DNA from: Thermoanaerobaculia bacterium
Lineage (GTDB): Bacteria; Acidobacteriota; Thermoanaerobaculia; Multivoradales; JAGPDF01
Direction of reading: 5' to 3'
Assembly: GCA_050186295.1 (NCBI GenBank)
Contig: JBFWYP010000018.1
Location: 1,590-65,589 of the forward strand
Length of the DNA: 64,000 bases
Under the pieces are notes generated by a model. That model was not told the origin of the DNA. It ran no database searches and was given only the letters and a program-made list of their open reading frames with translations. A program made the translations under genes and the position numbers. Each line of letters starts with the position of its first letter. Positions within the stretch are counted from its first letter, which is position 1. Shown here in pieces: positions 2,986-44,825 of this stretch.

Positions 2986-3912
2986 ATGACCCGAACGCTC
3001 CGGACTCTCGCTGCCCTCGCCCTCGGTTTCGCACTCGCCGCCGTCGCTCCCGCTGCGGCGAGCGCGACGGAAGGGCCCGCCGCTCGCGGCGAGCAGATCC
3101 TCGCCAACCTGCGGCAGACCTTTCCCGGCCTCGCCACCCGCAACGTGGTCATGGGTCCGATCGAAGCCAGCCCCTATGCCGGCCTCGACCGCGGCTCGTT
3201 CACCGTCGACGGCGTCCAGGTGCAGAACTTCTTCGTCACGCGCGACAACAAGGCGCTCTACTTCCTCTCCGAGGCGATCGACGTCAGCCGCTCGGCGAGC
3301 GAGCTCGCCGCCGAAGCGGCGCGCGAGTCCGCCGCCCGCGTCGCCGAGCTGACGGCGGCGATCGTGGGGGAACCGTTCCGCGGCGGCGCCGCCGCACCGG
3401 TGACGATCGTCGAGTTCTCCGACTTCCAGTGCCCCTACTGCTCGCGCGCCGCCCAGACCGTGCACGAGATCCTCGCCCGCTACGGCGACGACGTGAAATT
3501 CGTGTTCAAGCACTTCCCGCTCGACTTCCATCCCTGGGCGCGGCCGGCGGCGATCGCCGCCGAGTGCGCCGCCGCGCAGTCGGGAGAGGCGTTCTGGAAG
3601 CTGCACGACGGCTACTTCGGCGCGCAGCAGCAGCTCACTCCGGAGAACGTCCTGGCGCGGAGCCGCGACTATCTCGCCGGCTCCGGCGTCGACATGGCGG
3701 CCTGGTCCGCCTGCGCCGAGAACAGCGGCTCCGAGAGCTACCGCGCCGCTGCCTCGGCGGTCGAGTCCGACCTCCGCTTCGGCCAGCAGCACGGCGTGAC
3801 CGGAACTCCGGGCTTCTTCGTCAACGGCACGTTCGTCAACGGCGCGCAGCCGATCGAAGCGTTCGTGCCGCTGATCGAAGCCGCCAGGTCCGCCGCGAAG
3901 CCGGCGAAGTAG
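2986..3912 (+). CDS. DsbA/DsbG-like thioredoxin-fold disulfide oxidoreductase, exported
   Basis: Signal peptide; EFSDFQCPYC, FKHFPL, GVTGTPGFFVNG; true start is ATG 2986 within the long 139..3912 ORF. Confidence 0.88.
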   Translation: MTRTLRTLAALALGFALAAVAPAAASATEGPAARGEQILANLRQTFPGLATRNVVMGPIEASPYAGLDRGSFTVDGVQVQNFFVTRDNKALYFLSEAIDVSRSASELAAEAARESAARVAELTAAIVGEPFRGGAAAPVTIVEFSDFQCPYCSRAAQTVHEILARYGDDVKFVFKHFPLDFHPWARPAAIAAECAAAQSGEAFWKLHDGYFGAQQQLTPENVLARSRDYLAGSGVDMAAWSACAENSGSESYRAAASAVESDLRFGQQHGVTGTPGFFVNGTFVNGAQPIEAFVPLIEAARSAAKPAK

Positions 3913-32986: not shown

Positions 32987-34309
32987 TCAGACGAAATGGC
33001 GGATCATCCCCTCGACCGTGCGGTCGAGCTCGGCGTCCGTCGCGCGCAGCTTGGCGATCTTCTCGACCGAATACATCACCGTCGAGTGGTGCTTGTCGTT
33101 GAACTGCCGCCCGATCTCCGGATAGGAGAGATTCGTCAGCTCCTTGCAGAGGAACATCGCCACCTGGCGCGGGAAGGCGATCTGCTTGGAGTTCGACTTC
33201 GACTTGATCTCGCTCACCTTGAGACCGTAGTTGCGTGCCACGAACTTGATGATCTCGGCGGCGGTCGCGCGACGGCCGTCGTCGGGAAGGATGTCCTTGA
33301 GCGTCTCCTTGGTGAGCTCGAGCGACAGCGGCTTGCCGGTGAGCGAGGAGAAGGCGGCCACGCGGTTGAGCATCCCTTCGAGCTCGCGCACGTTCGACTT
33401 GACCTGGTGCGCGACGAAGAGCGCGACGTCGTCGGGAAGCTGGACGCCGTCCTGGTCCGCCTTGCGGCGCAGGATCGCCACCTTGGTCTCGAGATCGGGC
33501 GCCTGGATGTCGGCGATCAGTCCCCACTCGAAACGCGAACGCAGGCGCTCCTCGATCGCCGGGATGTTGCGCGGCGAGCAGTCGGAGGAAAGGATGATCT
33601 GGCGCTGGCTCGTGTAGAGCGTGTTGAAGGTGTGGAAGAACTCTTCCTGCGTGCGCTCCTTGTTGGCGAGGAACTGGATGTCGTCGACGAGCAGCACGTC
33701 GATCGAGCGGTAGCGCTCGCGGAACGAGTGCATCGACTTGAAGCGCAGCGAGTTGATGAGCTGGTTCACGAACTGTTCGGCGGTGAAATAGAGGACCTTG
33801 AGGTCGGGCTGGCGCTTCAGGATCTGGTGACCGATGGCGTGCAGGAGATGGGTCTTGCCGAGCCCGACGCCGCCGTAGAGGAAGAGCGGGTTGTAGCTGT
33901 GGGCCGGACTCTCGGCGACCGCGCGGGCGGCGGCGTGGGCGAACTGGTTCGAGCTGCCGACGACGAACGTCTCGAAGACGTACTTGGGGTTGAGACGGTC
34001 TCCGAGCGGAACCTCGGGGCGCTCCGCGGTGCCGCCGCGGAGCGGCGCGCCGCCGCCGGTGCTCTCCTCGGTGACGATCGAGATCGAGAACAGCTCGTCG
34101 AAGAGGGCGGCGGCCTCGCGGTCGAGCGTGTCGCGGAAACTCTCTTCGAGTGTGTGCGCGAAACGGGCGTTGGGTGCCACGAGGACCAGGCCGTCGGCGC
34201 TCTCGCTGCGCAGCTTGAGCGGCGCGATCCAGGTGTTGAATTCGTCGGCCTCGAGCAGAGCGCGGAGGCGCTCCTGCAGGTGGCTCCATGTGCGCGGCGA
34301 CGTGGTCAT
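32987..34309 (-). CDS. dnaA: Chromosomal replication initiator DnaA
   Basis: YNPLFLYGGVGLGKTHL, LLVDDIQF, QEEFFHTFN, RLRSRFEWGL, NVRELEG. Confidence 0.98.
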   Translation of the reverse strand: MTTSPRTWSHLQERLRALLEADEFNTWIAPLKLRSESADGLVLVAPNARFAHTLEESFRDTLDREAAALFDELFSISIVTEESTGGGAPLRGGTAERPEVPLGDRLNPKYVFETFVVGSSNQFAHAAARAVAESPAHSYNPLFLYGGVGLGKTHLLHAIGHQILKRQPDLKVLYFTAEQFVNQLINSLRFKSMHSFRERYRSIDVLLVDDIQFLANKERTQEEFFHTFNTLYTSQRQIILSSDCSPRNIPAIEERLRSRFEWGLIADIQAPDLETKVAILRRKADQDGVQLPDDVALFVAHQVKSNVRELEGMLNRVAAFSSLTGKPLSLELTKETLKDILPDDGRRATAAEIIKFVARNYGLKVSEIKSKSNSKQIAFPRQVAMFLCKELTNLSYPEIGRQFNDKHHSTVMYSVEKIAKLRATDAELDRTVEGMIRHFV

Positions 34310-34312
34310 GGG

Positions 34313-34401
34313 TGCAGAAAAGTTTGAACAGGTTTTCCGCAGCTTGTGGAAAACCTGTCGGGTGCCCGGCGCAAATGCGTAGGAGCGGCGCGATCATAGC
34401 A
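34313..34401 (-). promoter_or_regulatory. dnaA promoter with inverted DnaA-box pair (autoregulation or bipartite origin)
   Basis: Inverted repeat ACAGGTTTTCC-GCAGCTTGT-GGAAAACCTGT (34328-34358) containing TTTTCCGCA and TGTGGAAAA; extended -10 TGCTATGAT on the minus strand at 34393-34401. Confidence 0.7.
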
Positions 34402-34445: not shown

Positions 34446-36179
34446 TCACTCGGGGCGGACCAGAGAGAGGAATTCGGGGTCGAGCGAGAGGTCGCCGGGG
34501 AGCGGCGCGAGCAGCCGGCGGGAGAGCCCGAGGAGCGGATTCCGCGCCTGGAGGAGCGCCGCGAGACCGCCCCGGCGCTGCTCGCGGAGCCAGTCCCAGA
34601 GAGTTCCCGGGCGCGGCAGGAAGGTGAGGGCGACGGTCGCGTCGGGCGCGATCCCTGCCTCTTCCCGGGCGAGCTCGATGGCGCGGTCGAGGCCGCCGAT
34701 CTCGTCGACAAGGTGGCGCGGCAGGGCGTCGGCGCCGGTCCAGACGCGGCCGCCGGCGACCGCCTCGACCTCTTCGCGGGGCAGCCCGCGACCCGCCGCG
34801 ACGTGGTCGAGGAAGCGGCCGTAGACCTCGTCGATGCGGCGCCGCATCACCGCCAGCTCGCGCTCGTCGAACGGCTTGAGAGTGGAGTACAGCTCGGCGT
34901 TGGCGCCGCGCGTGAGCGGATCGTAGGTGACGCCGAGGAGCTCTTTCTGGAAGCGTCCGCTGGCGAGCTTGCCCGAGACGACACCGATCGACCCGGTGAT
35001 GGTCGCCTCCTCGGCGACGATGCGGGTCGCCCGCGAGGCGATGTAGTAGCCGCCCGAGGCCGCGACGTCCGACATCGACACGATCACCGGCTTCTTCTCC
35101 ACGAGACGCTCGACTTCGCGCAGGATCAGATCGGAGGCGAGCGCCGAGCCGCCGGGGCTGTCGATGCGCAGCACGACCGCAGCGACCGAATCGTCCTCGG
35201 CGAGCCGGACGAGGTGGCGCGAGAATTCGGTGGCGCCGAGCGCCAGCTCCCCCGAGAACGGATCGGTGCCGCTGCCGCCACGGTAGATCGCTCCCAGCGC
35301 GTAGAGGATCGCCACCTTGCGGCCGGAGGCGGAGCGACGATCGACCCGGGCGGCGTAGTCGGCGAGCGACTCGGCGTCGTCTCCCATCTCCTCCTCGACG
35401 CGGTCGCGGAACTCGTCGGGATACTCGAGACGATCCACCAGCCCATCGGCCAGCGCCTCGCTCGCCGAGAGCGGCGCGCGGTCGACCCAGGCGCGGACTT
35501 CGTCCTCCTGCTTGTCGCGCTCGCCGGCGATGCCGCGGACGATCTGCGAGAAGAAGCCGTCGAGGAGCTCGTCGAGCGCCAGGCGTGCGGCGGGGGAGTG
35601 ACCGGTCTCGGTGAACATCTCGGCGGCGCTCTTGAACGTGCCCGCGGTGAGGAAGCTGGGCTCGATCTTCAGCTTGTCGAGGCCGCCGCGCAGGAACGGC
35701 CCCTGCGCCAGGAGTCCGAGGAGATTGATCTCTCCCGCCGGTGCGAGGGCGATGTCGCCGCAGGCCGAAGCGAGGTAGTACTCGAGCGTCCCGTTCGAAC
35801 CTTCGCCGGCGGTCTCGAGGTAACAGTCGACGCTCTTGCCGGCTTCGCGCAGCAACGTGAGCTGGCGGCGCAGCTCCTGCGCCTTGGCGAGCCCGAAGGC
35901 GGCGTCCTGGATGTAGAGCTCGAGGCCGCGGATCCGCGGATCGGTGCGCGCCGCGCGGAGGCCGCGATAGGCGACCGAGAGGGTCAGCGGCGGCTCGGAT
36001 CCCGGCAGCGGGAGCCCGCCGGCCAGGTCGTGCTCGGCGAGCGGGGAGTCGAGGCGCAGAGTGAGGCGGCGATCGCCGCCGGTGAGGCCGTGGGGGCGGT
36101 CGAGGAGCCAGTAGCCGAGCCCGGCCACGAGGGCGCCCAGGAGGGTGAAAAAGAGCAGCAGATAGGCCAGTCGTCGCAT
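34446..36179 (-). CDS. sppA: Signal peptide peptidase SppA (S49, long form)
   Basis: N-terminal TM; LRIDSPGGSALAS, SMSDVAASGGYY, TITGSIGV, GGRVWTG. Confidence 0.93.
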   Translation of the reverse strand: MRRLAYLLLFFTLLGALVAGLGYWLLDRPHGLTGGDRRLTLRLDSPLAEHDLAGGLPLPGSEPPLTLSVAYRGLRAARTDPRIRGLELYIQDAAFGLAKAQELRRQLTLLREAGKSVDCYLETAGEGSNGTLEYYLASACGDIALAPAGEINLLGLLAQGPFLRGGLDKLKIEPSFLTAGTFKSAAEMFTETGHSPAARLALDELLDGFFSQIVRGIAGERDKQEDEVRAWVDRAPLSASEALADGLVDRLEYPDEFRDRVEEEMGDDAESLADYAARVDRRSASGRKVAILYALGAIYRGGSGTDPFSGELALGATEFSRHLVRLAEDDSVAAVVLRIDSPGGSALASDLILREVERLVEKKPVIVSMSDVAASGGYYIASRATRIVAEEATITGSIGVVSGKLASGRFQKELLGVTYDPLTRGANAELYSTLKPFDERELAVMRRRIDEVYGRFLDHVAAGRGLPREEVEAVAGGRVWTGADALPRHLVDEIGGLDRAIELAREEAGIAPDATVALTFLPRPGTLWDWLREQRRGGLAALLQARNPLLGLSRRLLAPLPGDLSLDPEFLSLVRPE

Positions 36180-36234
36180 CGAGCTCTCCCGGCGCAAAGA
36201 TAGCGCGTCGCTGCCCCCGGGAATGAACCAGGGC

Positions 36235-36250
36235 TGGCACCTGTTTTGCT
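36235..36250 (+). promoter_or_regulatory. Sigma54 (-24/-12) promoter
   Basis: TGGCAC-CTGTT-TTGCT, an exact match to consensus TGGCAC-N5-TTGCW. Confidence 0.75.
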
Positions 36251-36260
36251 CCACAGCACG

Positions 36261-36472
36261 ACAGAGTGTTCACCGTTCCCGAGGAGGTTCCACTCACCTA
36301 AAACCATCCAACCTAGAAGTTTCGAGATCCGGAAGGATCTCCACCCCTCTCGAAACCCAGCCAAAATCCCCTATCAACAGGGGTATAGCCACTTCGAGCC
36401 AACCTTCTAGGAACCCCTCGCACGACGGTTCTCTTGATCGGCCCCGGATGATTCCGGGGCCGATCGCTTTTT
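36261..36472 (+). ncRNA. Putative sigma54-dependent structured small RNA (~210 nt)
   Basis: Bounded by the sigma54 promoter and a terminator; nested inverted repeats; lower GC than the flanks; no SD-led ORF. Confidence 0.6.
36436..36472 (+). terminator. Rho-independent terminator
   Basis: GATCGGCCCCGGA-TGAT-TCCGGGGCCGATC followed by GCTTTTT. Confidence 0.85.
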
Positions 36473-36530
36473 GGGACAGGCCGTTTTGGCCGCACTGCGG
36501 CGCAAATCTGGCCGAGTAGACTCCGCCACC

Positions 36531-37601
36531 ATGGATTCCGGGCGCGAGCTCCTGGCCTGGTACGAGCGGAATCGCCGCGACCTCCCCTGGCGCCGGCGCC
36601 GCGACCCCTACGCGGTCTGGATCTCGGAAATCATGCTGCAACAGACCCGGGTGGAGGCCGCCCGCGGCTATTTCGAGCGGTTCCTGGAGCGCTTTCCCTC
36701 CGTCGAACGGCTGGCGGCGGCGACCACGGACGAGGTCCTGGCCGCCTGGTCGGGGCTCGGCTACTACCGGCGGGCGCGGCAGCTGCACGCGGCGGCACAG
36801 GAGGTGGTCGCCCGCGGCGCCTTCCCCGAGCGGGCGGCGGAGCTCGAAGAGCTTGCGGGGATCGGCCCCTATACCGCGGCCGCGATCGCCAGCATCGCCT
36901 TCGGCGAAGCCGTCCCGGTGCTCGACGGCAACGTGGCGCGCGTTCTGGCGCGGGTCGTCGCCGAGGAGCGCCGCGTGGGCGAGGCGGCGGTCCGCCGTCG
37001 CCTTCTCGCGGCGGCCGCCGGGCTCCTCGTCCCGGGGCGCCCGGGCGACAGCAACCAGGCGATGATGGAGCTCGGGGCGACGGTCTGTCTCCCGCTCCGC
37101 CCCCGCTGTCCCGACTGTCCCCTGGCGACCGTCTGCGCCGCCTTCGGCGCCGGCCGGCCGGAGCACTATCCGGTCAGGGCGGCGCGCCGTCCGCCGACCG
37201 CGGTGCGCCAGCTGGCGGCGCTGGTCGTCGACGGGGAGCGCCTGCTGCTGGTTCGCCGGGGGGAGGACGAAGGGCAGCTCGCCGGGCTCTGGGAGCTGCC
37301 GCTGGTCGAGGCGGCGTCCGCGGCCGCCGGGCGGCGCGGGCTCGCCGAGCGCTACGGCGGAGAGTGGACGCTGGGGCCGGTCGCCGGGCGGGTTCGCCAC
37401 GCCATCACCAGCCGGGCCCTCACGATCGAAGTGCGCCGGGCGGAGCGCCAGACCGCGCCGGGCGAAGTGCGCGAGGGGCTGGCCGGCGCGGACGGCGGCT
37501 GGTTCCCGCTCGCCGAGGCGCGACGGCTCGCCCTGACCGGCGTGGCGCGGAAGATCGTAGAAAAGTTCGCCGCGGAGGCGCTCCGGGAGCGCGACGGCTA
37601 G
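36531..37601 (+). CDS. mutY: A/G-specific adenine glycosylase
   Basis: RDLPWR, VWISEIMLQQT, WSGLGYY, GIGPYTA, DGNV.RV, CLPLRPRCPDCPL Fe-S motif, NUDIX-like C-terminus. Confidence 0.95.
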   Translation: MDSGRELLAWYERNRRDLPWRRRRDPYAVWISEIMLQQTRVEAARGYFERFLERFPSVERLAAATTDEVLAAWSGLGYYRRARQLHAAAQEVVARGAFPERAAELEELAGIGPYTAAAIASIAFGEAVPVLDGNVARVLARVVAEERRVGEAAVRRRLLAAAAGLLVPGRPGDSNQAMMELGATVCLPLRPRCPDCPLATVCAAFGAGRPEHYPVRAARRPPTAVRQLAALVVDGERLLLVRRGEDEGQLAGLWELPLVEAASAAAGRRGLAERYGGEWTLGPVAGRVRHAITSRALTIEVRRAERQTAPGEVREGLAGADGGWFPLAEARRLALTGVARKIVEKFAAEALRERDG

Positions 37602-43890: not shown

Positions 43891-44031
43891 GTCCGCGAGC
43901 CGCCGACGAAGGGTTCTGGCACCCCTGGGGCACCCGAAACGAGGACCTTATCGCTGCTCCCTTCCGGGCCTGACGAGATTCGGAACCGCTCGATGCTCAG
44001 GACCCGAACCCTTCGTCTCCGGCTCGCGGGC
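43891..44031 (-). ncRNA. ffs: Signal recognition particle RNA
   Basis: Helix-8 motif TCAGGCCCGGAAGGGAGCAGC; closing stem CCGCGAGCCG..GACGAAGGGTTC / GAACCCTTCGTC..CGGCTCGCGG; upstream of dnaX. Confidence 0.92.

Positions 44032-44623: not shown

Positions 44624-44715
<92 letters not shown>

Positions 44716-44735: not shown

Positions 44736-44825
<90 letters not shown>

Follow-up and report, generated by a model that had tools for sequence, protein, structure and literature searches.

A previously undescribed small RNA family with a sigma54 promoter and a conserved three-way junction in one order of Acidobacteriota

The window analyzed here is a stretch of 64,000 nucleotides from a Thermoanaerobaculia bacterium (GenBank assembly GCA_050186295.1, contig JBFWYP010000018.1, positions 1,590 to 65,589), and the subject of this work is a small RNA (sRNA) gene that lies in it between sppA and mutY. 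The RNA represents a previously undescribed family of a known kind, the sigma54-dependent sRNAs, and matches no family in Rfam 15. A sequence-only reading of the window had earlier proposed a structured small RNA with a sigma54 promoter and a terminator at this place, a proposal that is supported here, as the element is conserved with covariation in relatives. It is very probable that this is a genuine trans-acting sigma54-dependent sRNA. The fuller statement, that an RNA of ~170 nt plus terminator is an independent trans-acting regulator acting by Hfq-assisted base-pairing, is the reading we favor, tentatively and at somewhat less than an even chance. The comparative support is unusually clean, with promoter, covarying fold and terminator extending over ~47 genera, and it therefore offers a handle on a sigma54 signalling pathway and on post-transcriptional control in an abundant, mostly uncultured lineage of soil and wastewater. 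The family is fit for Rfam as it is, and the biological pay-off hinges on the activator and the partner.

The promoter, the predicted transcript and the terminator are placed as follows:

36235..36250, + strand: sigma54 promoter TGGCAC-CTGTT-TTGCT, with TGGCAC as the -24 and TTGCT as the -12 element
36261..36472, + strand: predicted sRNA transcript of ~212 nt, with ends inferred from promoter geometry and the terminator
36430..36472, + strand: U-rich spacer TCTCTTGA, terminator (36435-36466) and T-run (36468-36472)
36435-36466, + strand: terminator hairpin of 14 pairs, 10 of them G-C, with a loop of 4, followed by CTTTTT

The exact sigma54 promoter named in the sequence-only reading reads on the + strand and is the sole match to TGGCAY-N5-TTGCW in the 64-kb window, while none of 100 dinucleotide shuffles contained a match. 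The genome to which the window belongs is a 3.93-Mb assembly with 69.6% G+C and 98.7% completeness, and in the whole of it the strict form TGGCAY-N5-TTGC[ATC] occurs at four sites, all four of which are intergenic and aimed at a downstream gene or feature. When the C of the GC is placed at -12 the predicted start falls at ~36261. The same genome encodes one RpoN (Sigma54_DBD, 224.8 bits) and has 17 strong Sigma54_activat matches, representing enhancer-binding activators, so a consensus promoter at the right distance is accompanied by the machinery that a sigma54-dependent sRNA would use. The terminator is also as had been described, with exact 13-nt arms (36436-36448 and 36453-36465), and forms a separate, strong hairpin (-30 kcal/mol). 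Ahead of it lies the U-rich UUCUCUUGA in the window and UUCUUUUCUU at that place in the genus. The features typical of Hfq-dependent sRNAs are present together, as Hfq is encoded (58.2 bits) and the terminator carries a T5 U-tail with an adjacent U-rich stretch.

The statement that the interval has no open reading frame led by a Shine-Dalgarno (SD) sequence holds in substance. One + frame is open over the RNA in the window for 70 codons, its sole ATG lying upstream of the promoter-predicted start, and this frame is not conserved: in 11 of 16 genus members no stop-free stretch exceeds 47 codons, and the copies differ by single-base indels. A small protein is therefore ruled out as the product.

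The predicted transcript (36261-36472) folds with an energy of -83.8 kcal/mol, compared with -55.1 +/- 4.3 kcal/mol in 200 shuffles (z -6.74, and -4.43 for the reverse strand). Its conserved core is, on comparative modelling, a three-way junction in which a closing stem, P1, encloses two hairpins, P2 and P3:

36272..36291, + strand: 5' strand of P1, ACCGT..CGAGGAGGTTCC (order consensus of the inner part GGGGAGGTTCC)
36307..36313, + strand: J1/2, single-stranded TCCAACC (order consensus UCC(C/U)ACC over 84 copies; unpaired in the minimum free energy (MFE) and consensus folds)
36324..36341, + strand: hairpin P2, GAGATCC, loop GGAA, GGATCTC
36341..36350, + strand: single-stranded CCACCCCTCT, anti-SD-like and C/U-rich
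36368..36383, + strand: hairpin P3, CCCCT, loop ATCAAC, AGGGG
36384..36404, + strand: single strand past P3, TATAGCCAC...GAGCCAACC (order consensus UAgAgCCac...CCAaCC)
36410..36429, + strand: 3' strand of P1, GGAACCCCTCG..ACGGT (order consensus GGAACCTCCCC)

In the alignment of 84 copies, standard pairs make up 95.2% of cells and both sides change in 22 of the 24 modelled pairs; this alignment was fitted to the model and so favors the pairing figures. None of 500 shuffles reached any of the covariation measures, and sliding the 3' partners by 1-3 columns gave only 41-68% pairing. RNAalifold recovered the same helices from plain MAFFT alignments. The order consensus of P1 is GGGGAGGUUCC / GGAACCUCCCC, to which a freely covarying outer extension is added; its helices are 85-97% paired, with changes on both sides in 13 of 14 pairs. 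P2 is variable in sequence and covaries strongly (all five modelled pairs, with 97.4% of cells paired). The element most conserved in sequence is P3, which has the order form CCCCU-loop-ACAGGGG and a near-invariant loop ACA, and in which 99.3% of cells are paired and compensatory changes, though rare, occur in four of five pairs. When the same alignment was scanned pairwise for covariation, no helix or pseudoknot appeared beyond P1-P3, and P2 gained one extra pair. P1 was judged from the consensus fold and covariation, because the naive column mapping in the script used for stem retention within the genus under-scores it through register shifts.

The inverted repeats listed in the sequence-only reading are all present in the window, as are the three occurrences of AGCCA. 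Of the six nested repeats, however, CCTAGAAG/CTTCTAGG and GTTTCGAGA/TCTCGAAAC are not conserved: neither stem is retained in full by any of the other 15 members of the genus, so both are peculiar to the window. The MFE stem CTCGAA/TTCGAG is not kept in the genus either. The linkers between the helices are long, C/A-rich single strands with conserved UCC(C/U)ACC, GCCAAA, UAgAgCCac and CCAaCC. Within them CCACCCCTCT is invariant in the genus and 50-80% conserved over the order, and the strand at 36384..36404 holds two of the repeated GCCA / CCA(A/C)C motifs.

A DNA search found the stretch in 15 of the 16 other genus genomes at 75-81% identity, and partially in other genera. In the genus alignment the flank upstream of the promoter is unalignable and the promoter invariant. 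After some 12 variable bases, conservation resumes with the RNA body and extends through the terminator. A first covariance model, built from 26 sequences, gave one match each in 37 of 38 genomes of the family (24 of 24 among the high-quality ones; the window copy, 36261..36472, scores 149.8 bits) and matched 106 of 151 genomes of the order, in 47 of its 58 genera, with one unpublished genome (G149) counted. Some of these order genomes contain two or three copies, often in tandem. In a phylum-wide sample, also of 151 genomes, full-length matches were restricted to the window's genome and the three others of its order, with one marginal partial match besides, at 19.9 bits, to a genome of another family. 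The 84 copies served to build a second model. Of 151 genomes sampled from the class it matched 14, each of them a member of the window's order, and it matched none of the 114 from the class's other orders. Judged by these genomes, the RNA is a conserved gene confined to one order of Acidobacteriota. The public records that carry it are labelled Thermoanaerobaculia, Acidobacteria or Acidobacteriota bacterium, apart from one Candidatus Multivoradales and one 'Holophagales' metagenome-assembled genome (MAG). A pattern scan of genome contigs gave 52 loci, 35 of which were confirmed by the model, the other 17 being chance matches in unrelated taxa.

YGGCAY-N5-NTGCW is found upstream of the model start in 78 of the 84 copies. 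Each of the six copies without a sigma54 promoter is an additional (second or third) copy in a genome that has a sigma54-driven one too, and two of them (L123 and L141) have TTGTGA-N17-TATGAT in its place. At two loci of genus g6 (L045 and L050) sigma70-like hexamers overlap the sigma54 promoter. One model-negative genome of family f7 was seen by eye to contain a divergent copy behind a sigma70-like promoter, so the lack of a match in f7 is partly divergence. Paralogues differ from each other in linkers as well as promoters, and in tandem arrays each of the two to three copies has its own promoter and terminator. A strict script, requiring a hairpin of -10 kcal/mol or lower before at least four T, placed a terminator after 38 of the 84 copies, and further copies were judged by eye to have hairpins followed by interrupted T-runs. 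Arrays reach up to three tandem copies per locus (L099 and L111 in one MAG, L098, L116, L136), and the MAG with L099 and L111 has two loci of three copies each, six in all.

Evidence for expression comes from a wastewater metatranscriptome, in which a 165-nt contig (depth 7.1) matches 36273-36437 with one mismatch and does not extend beyond the RNA. The flanks are uncovered in the same run, which has nothing for sppA, and mutY was touched only by an unrelated 35-nt piece that is 90-95% alike. The contig lends weak support to a discrete, comparatively abundant small transcript. Two other runs contained only contigs of relatives, 90-99% alike, that add nothing on expression.

The genes around the RNA in the window are:

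34446-36179, - strand: sppA (Peptidase_S49)
36531-37601, + strand: mutY (HhH-GPD and NUDIX_4)
32987-34309, - strand: dnaA, 2 kb left of the RNA behind sppA, with dnaN and a recF-like gene further left

The placement between sppA and mutY given by the sequence-only reading is thus correct for the window, but it is not a rule for the order. Among the 76 loci that hold the 84 copies, 62 have mutY downstream in the same orientation, as a rule at a distance of 70-260 nt from the end of P1, while the upstream gene may be dnaA, sppA or rimK. A divergent sppA lies upstream in 31 loci and dnaA is the direct divergent neighbor in 21; in some of the remaining loci rimK or a Zn-protease gene is upstream. 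The frequency of mutY could mean that the sigma54 promoter is that of mutY, with the RNA and its terminator forming a cis leader or attenuator that sets read-through. At the two g6 loci the 5' arm of the terminator, by eye, overlaps the last bases of P1, a point in favor of this reading. We nevertheless regard a mutY leader as very unlikely. In 14 of the 76 loci there is no mutY downstream, and in five of these the downstream gene is convergent. These five are the family f10 loci examined (L059, L063, L121, L128, L145), where the RNA follows ligD in four and lies beside ku in one, and where the convergent gene in all five is a DUF3516 helicase; the other nine lack mutY downstream as well. The f10 arrangement, together with the separate promoter of each tandem copy, shows that the RNA is a stand-alone gene and not a leader of mutY. 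The terminator in most copies is a separate strong hairpin without an evident antiterminator, mutY has a conserved upstream motif of its own after this terminator, and the metatranscriptome contig covers the RNA and not mutY.

Genus g15 also speaks against a leader, having lost the RNA body and kept mutY. The first model found the RNA in none of its 22 genomes, and in the three genomes inspected (L169, L170, L171) TGGCAC-N5-TTGTC is retained directly before mutY, ~100 nt upstream, with the RNA body gone. The sequence there runs CTTGGCAC-TTTCT-TTGTC, a T-rich stretch and then TTTGGCGGC, which looks like a promoter joined to the post-terminator flank by deletion of the RNA body. DnaA boxes occur at these three loci ~150-250 nt further upstream of the remnant promoter.

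The upstream region of mutY has features of its own. A palindromic YGCCR-WWW-YGGCR is found 40-130 nt past the sRNA terminator and before mutY at most loci (GGCCGTTTTGGCC at 36479-36491 in the window). In tandem arrays it stands only behind the mutY-proximal copy, and so seems to be an operator or promoter element that belongs upstream of mutY. Genus members also have a TAGACT/TACACT hexamer ~25 nt past the palindrome and ~8 nt before the mutY ATG, which suggests that the mutY mRNA may be leaderless or have only a very short leader.

The neighbors dnaA, dnaN and the recF-like gene, together with a turn in GC skew (the cumulative minimum is at ~24-26 kb of the window), show the RNA locus to be origin-proximal, and the window probably spans the replication origin region. 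An RNA of this position could be linked to replication, with either the transcript or its transcription modulating dnaA expression, origin firing or DNA repair. Where dnaA is the direct neighbor, 17 of the 21 loci have one to three DnaA boxes near the dnaA start, and repair functions recur around the RNA, both as mutY and as the ligD, ku and DUF3516 helicase genes of f10. The f10 locus is one of non-homologous end-joining (ligD with LigD_Prim-Pol and ligase, or ku), and as such is a second, independent association with DNA repair. Synteny near dnaA is generally stable, however, so the linkage may be passive and the recurring replication and repair neighbors may reflect no more than this stability. 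The RNA is not complementary to any of the dnaA, dnaN, sppA or mutY start regions (dnaA ranks 3100-3201 of 3242), and effects of transcription alone would need no conserved RNA structure. The RNA is not oriC itself, as there is no DnaA-box cluster in or beside it: allowing up to one mismatch, the whole window contains five boxes, the nearest of which, TTTTCCACA at 34345-34353, lies between sppA and dnaA. A role tied to the origin therefore seems very improbable to us.

To place the RNA among known families we compared it with all 4227 models of Rfam 15, any of GlmY, GlmZ, CrcZ, Qrr, Y RNA and Acido-1 among them. At the gathering threshold the window matched only the signal recognition particle (SRP) RNA and two tRNAs, none of them at the RNA, and at E <=10 the RNA region itself gave only chance hairpin matches. 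No match was obtained for 15 homologous loci. The absence of a family match agrees with the sequence-only reading, which recognized no Rfam family here, but its suggestion of a 6S-like RNA did not hold up. Such a polymerase-binding RNA, or a Y-RNA-like partner of Ro, would fit the length of ~170-210 nt and the closing stem formed from the 5' and 3' ends, and the rsr-Y RNA-rtcBA operon of Salmonella is sigma54-driven. Neither RF00013 nor a Y RNA model matches even at E <=10, though, and a canonical 6S RNA is encoded elsewhere in the genome (G000:C7:7345-7533, 51.7 bits against a cut-off of 46.4). The architecture also differs, being a three-way junction and not a rod with a central bubble, and neither TROVE/Ro nor RtcB was found in the 98.7% complete genome, which removes the Ro and Rtc modules. 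A 6S-like or Y-like identity is exceedingly unlikely on this evidence.

In function the RNA comes closest to GlmY/GlmZ, CrcZ and Qrr, though none of these is homologous to it. CrcZ and CrcY of Pseudomonas are sigma54- and CbrB-dependent sRNAs that titrate Hfq, and GlmY acts as a decoy for RapZ. CrcZ/CrcY resemble the new RNA in being sigma54-driven, in carrying a short single-stranded motif repeated along a structured RNA and in having paralogues; they differ in that the motif here is CCA(A/C)C and not an A-rich CA motif, and here there is no adjacent activator gene and no Rfam match. The Qrr sRNAs of Vibrio (PMC10162802) are base-pairing paralogues that depend on sigma54, LuxO and Hfq. They share with the new RNA a sigma54 promoter, multiple paralogues, a terminator with a U-tail and a host with Hfq. 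The new RNA is twice their size, has a closed three-way junction where Qrr has four simple stem-loops, and gives no Rfam match. With RsaE/RoxS of Firmicutes and 6C of Actinobacteria it has in common conserved unpaired C-rich motifs able to pair with G-rich ribosome-binding sites, whereas it is under sigma54, has another fold and shows no detected homology. The likeness to 6S RNA (RF00013) is limited to a similar length and paired 5' and 3' ends.

GlmY/GlmZ of Enterobacteriaceae are homologous sRNAs dependent on sigma54 and GlrR; in some species a sigma70 promoter overlaps the sigma54 one, and in others one paralogue is driven by sigma70 only (PMC3045617). The new family is similarly structured (~150-200 nt), with a sigma54 promoter, a terminator and homologous paralogues, and its overlapping sigma70-like hexamers (L045, L050) and sigma70-like-only paralogues (L123, L141; G062) repeat the GlmY/GlmZ pattern of promoter variation in a distant phylum. 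It has, however, no Rfam GlmY/GlmZ match, belongs to another phylum, showed no conserved upstream activator sites and has no known link to glmS. A search of the full-text literature, with supplementary files outside it, turned up neither a regulatory RNA described from Thermoanaerobaculia nor any sigma54-dependent sRNA from Acidobacteria.

In the base-pairing reading, sigma54-RNA polymerase would remain closed at the promoter until a signal switches on an enhancer-binding ATPase. The RNA would then accumulate, P1, P2 and P3 holding its C-rich single strands apart and exposed, namely UCC(C/U)ACC, CCACCCCUCU and GCCAACC, in which CCA(A/C)C is repeated. Most likely these strands would pair, helped by Hfq, with G-rich, SD-like stretches of several mRNAs and so alter their translation or stability. 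That RpoN, 17 activators and Hfq are all encoded points to a signal-induced trans-acting riboregulator, and base-pairing is favored by the U-rich stretch, terminator and U-tail, by the anti-SD-like motifs and by the paralogues with differing linkers. Paralogues with altered linkers and promoters also resemble known sRNA paralogue families such as GlmY/GlmZ (PMC3045617).

Several results weigh against this reading. We scanned for targets in the window's genome alone, using home-made gene calls (3273 genes) and RNAduplex with the three linkers, and the duplex energies at 3242 start regions were no better than those at 2652 intragenic controls. The best match, at a start codon, is a perfect one of 10 nt, of which ~6 are expected by chance. 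The complement of J1/2, GGURGGA, was found in 38 start-region windows compared with 13 and 15 intragenic control windows, an excess that is largely due to its likeness to an AGGAG-type ribosome-binding site; because SD sites earned a bonus in the gene calling, enrichments related to SD are to some degree circular. The complement of CCAACC was not enriched at start regions (11 versus 7 and 10). With P1 and P3 conserved in sequence and one short motif repeated at least three times, the RNA is conserved more in the manner of RNAs that are bound by proteins or have tertiary structure than in that of simple seed-plus-terminator sRNAs. No conserved upstream activator site was found in a genus alignment of the 300 nt upstream, which contained only the GATAGCGCG block, GGAAT and, in some members only, the palindrome TGCCCCTTGGGGCA. 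Neither the strand nor the ends of a transcript can be read from the metatranscriptome contig, and DNA may be present in RNA libraries.

Several of the same results would be accommodated by a protein decoy or sponge, which the sequence-only reading had also put forward, in which three or more single-stranded CCA(A/C)C / GCCA motifs and the sequence-invariant hairpin would sequester an RNA-binding protein on a sigma54 signal. CCA(A/C)C occurs 2.94 times per RNA, compared with 1.41 in first-order Markov simulations, although the sequences are related and the statistics overstate their independence; at least two copies are present in 72 of 84 RNAs and at least three in 49 of 84, spread over all three linkers. 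A decoy would also explain why P1 and P3 are kept in sequence as well as pairing and why no mRNA target signal rises above the controls, and the paralogues with sigma54, overlapping sigma70-like and sigma70-like-only promoters parallel those of GlmY/GlmZ (PMC3045617). What it lacks is a candidate protein, since no gene for an RNA-binding protein is consistently adjacent and the motif is unlike the A-rich ARN type bound by the distal face of Hfq. A CsrA sponge of the CsrB/RsmZ type was rejected, as CsrA was not found in the 98.7% complete genome and the GGA of the P2 loop is not conserved. A decoy is accordingly possible but not probable in our estimate. A more specific version, where a three-way-junction scaffold with at least three CCA(A/C)C / GCCA sites and the invariant CCCCU...ACAGGGG hairpin captures an RNA-binding protein and is expressed from the origin-proximal dnaA-mutY region with a dose that follows replication, is slightly less probable. 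If true, it would give Acidobacteria their first described riboregulatory hub and define a new titration pair of protein and RNA, in a lineage in which CsrA was not found. Base-pairing assisted by Hfq stays our preferred reading.

The region upstream of the promoter holds some further elements. The GATAGCGCG block is probably the -10 region of sppA. GGGAAT is present at 36219-36224, and GGGAAT/GGAAT recurs directly upstream of the -24 element in family f1 and several other families, either 1-3 nt or ~10-12 nt before the GG, including in tandem copies that have no divergent gene. In f1 it could serve the divergent sppA promoter as a -35-like element; alternatively, it may belong to the sigma54 promoter region. 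A palindrome of 14-16 bp, (C)TGCCCCTTGGGGCA(G), lies ~35-45 nt upstream of -24 in about half of the genus (L005-L013), is absent from the window and may represent either a binding site for an activator or the remnant of a hairpin.

The three other strict sigma54 sites of the genome, at G000:C8:127893 (+), C13:90669 (-) and C19:46331 (-), are 52-106 nt upstream of predicted genes of 75, 336 and 221 aa and may belong to the same sigma54 regulon or to others. Elsewhere in the window, the Rfam matches correspond to a bacterial small SRP RNA at 43910-44009 (-) and tRNA genes at 44624-44710 (+) and 44736-44822 (+).

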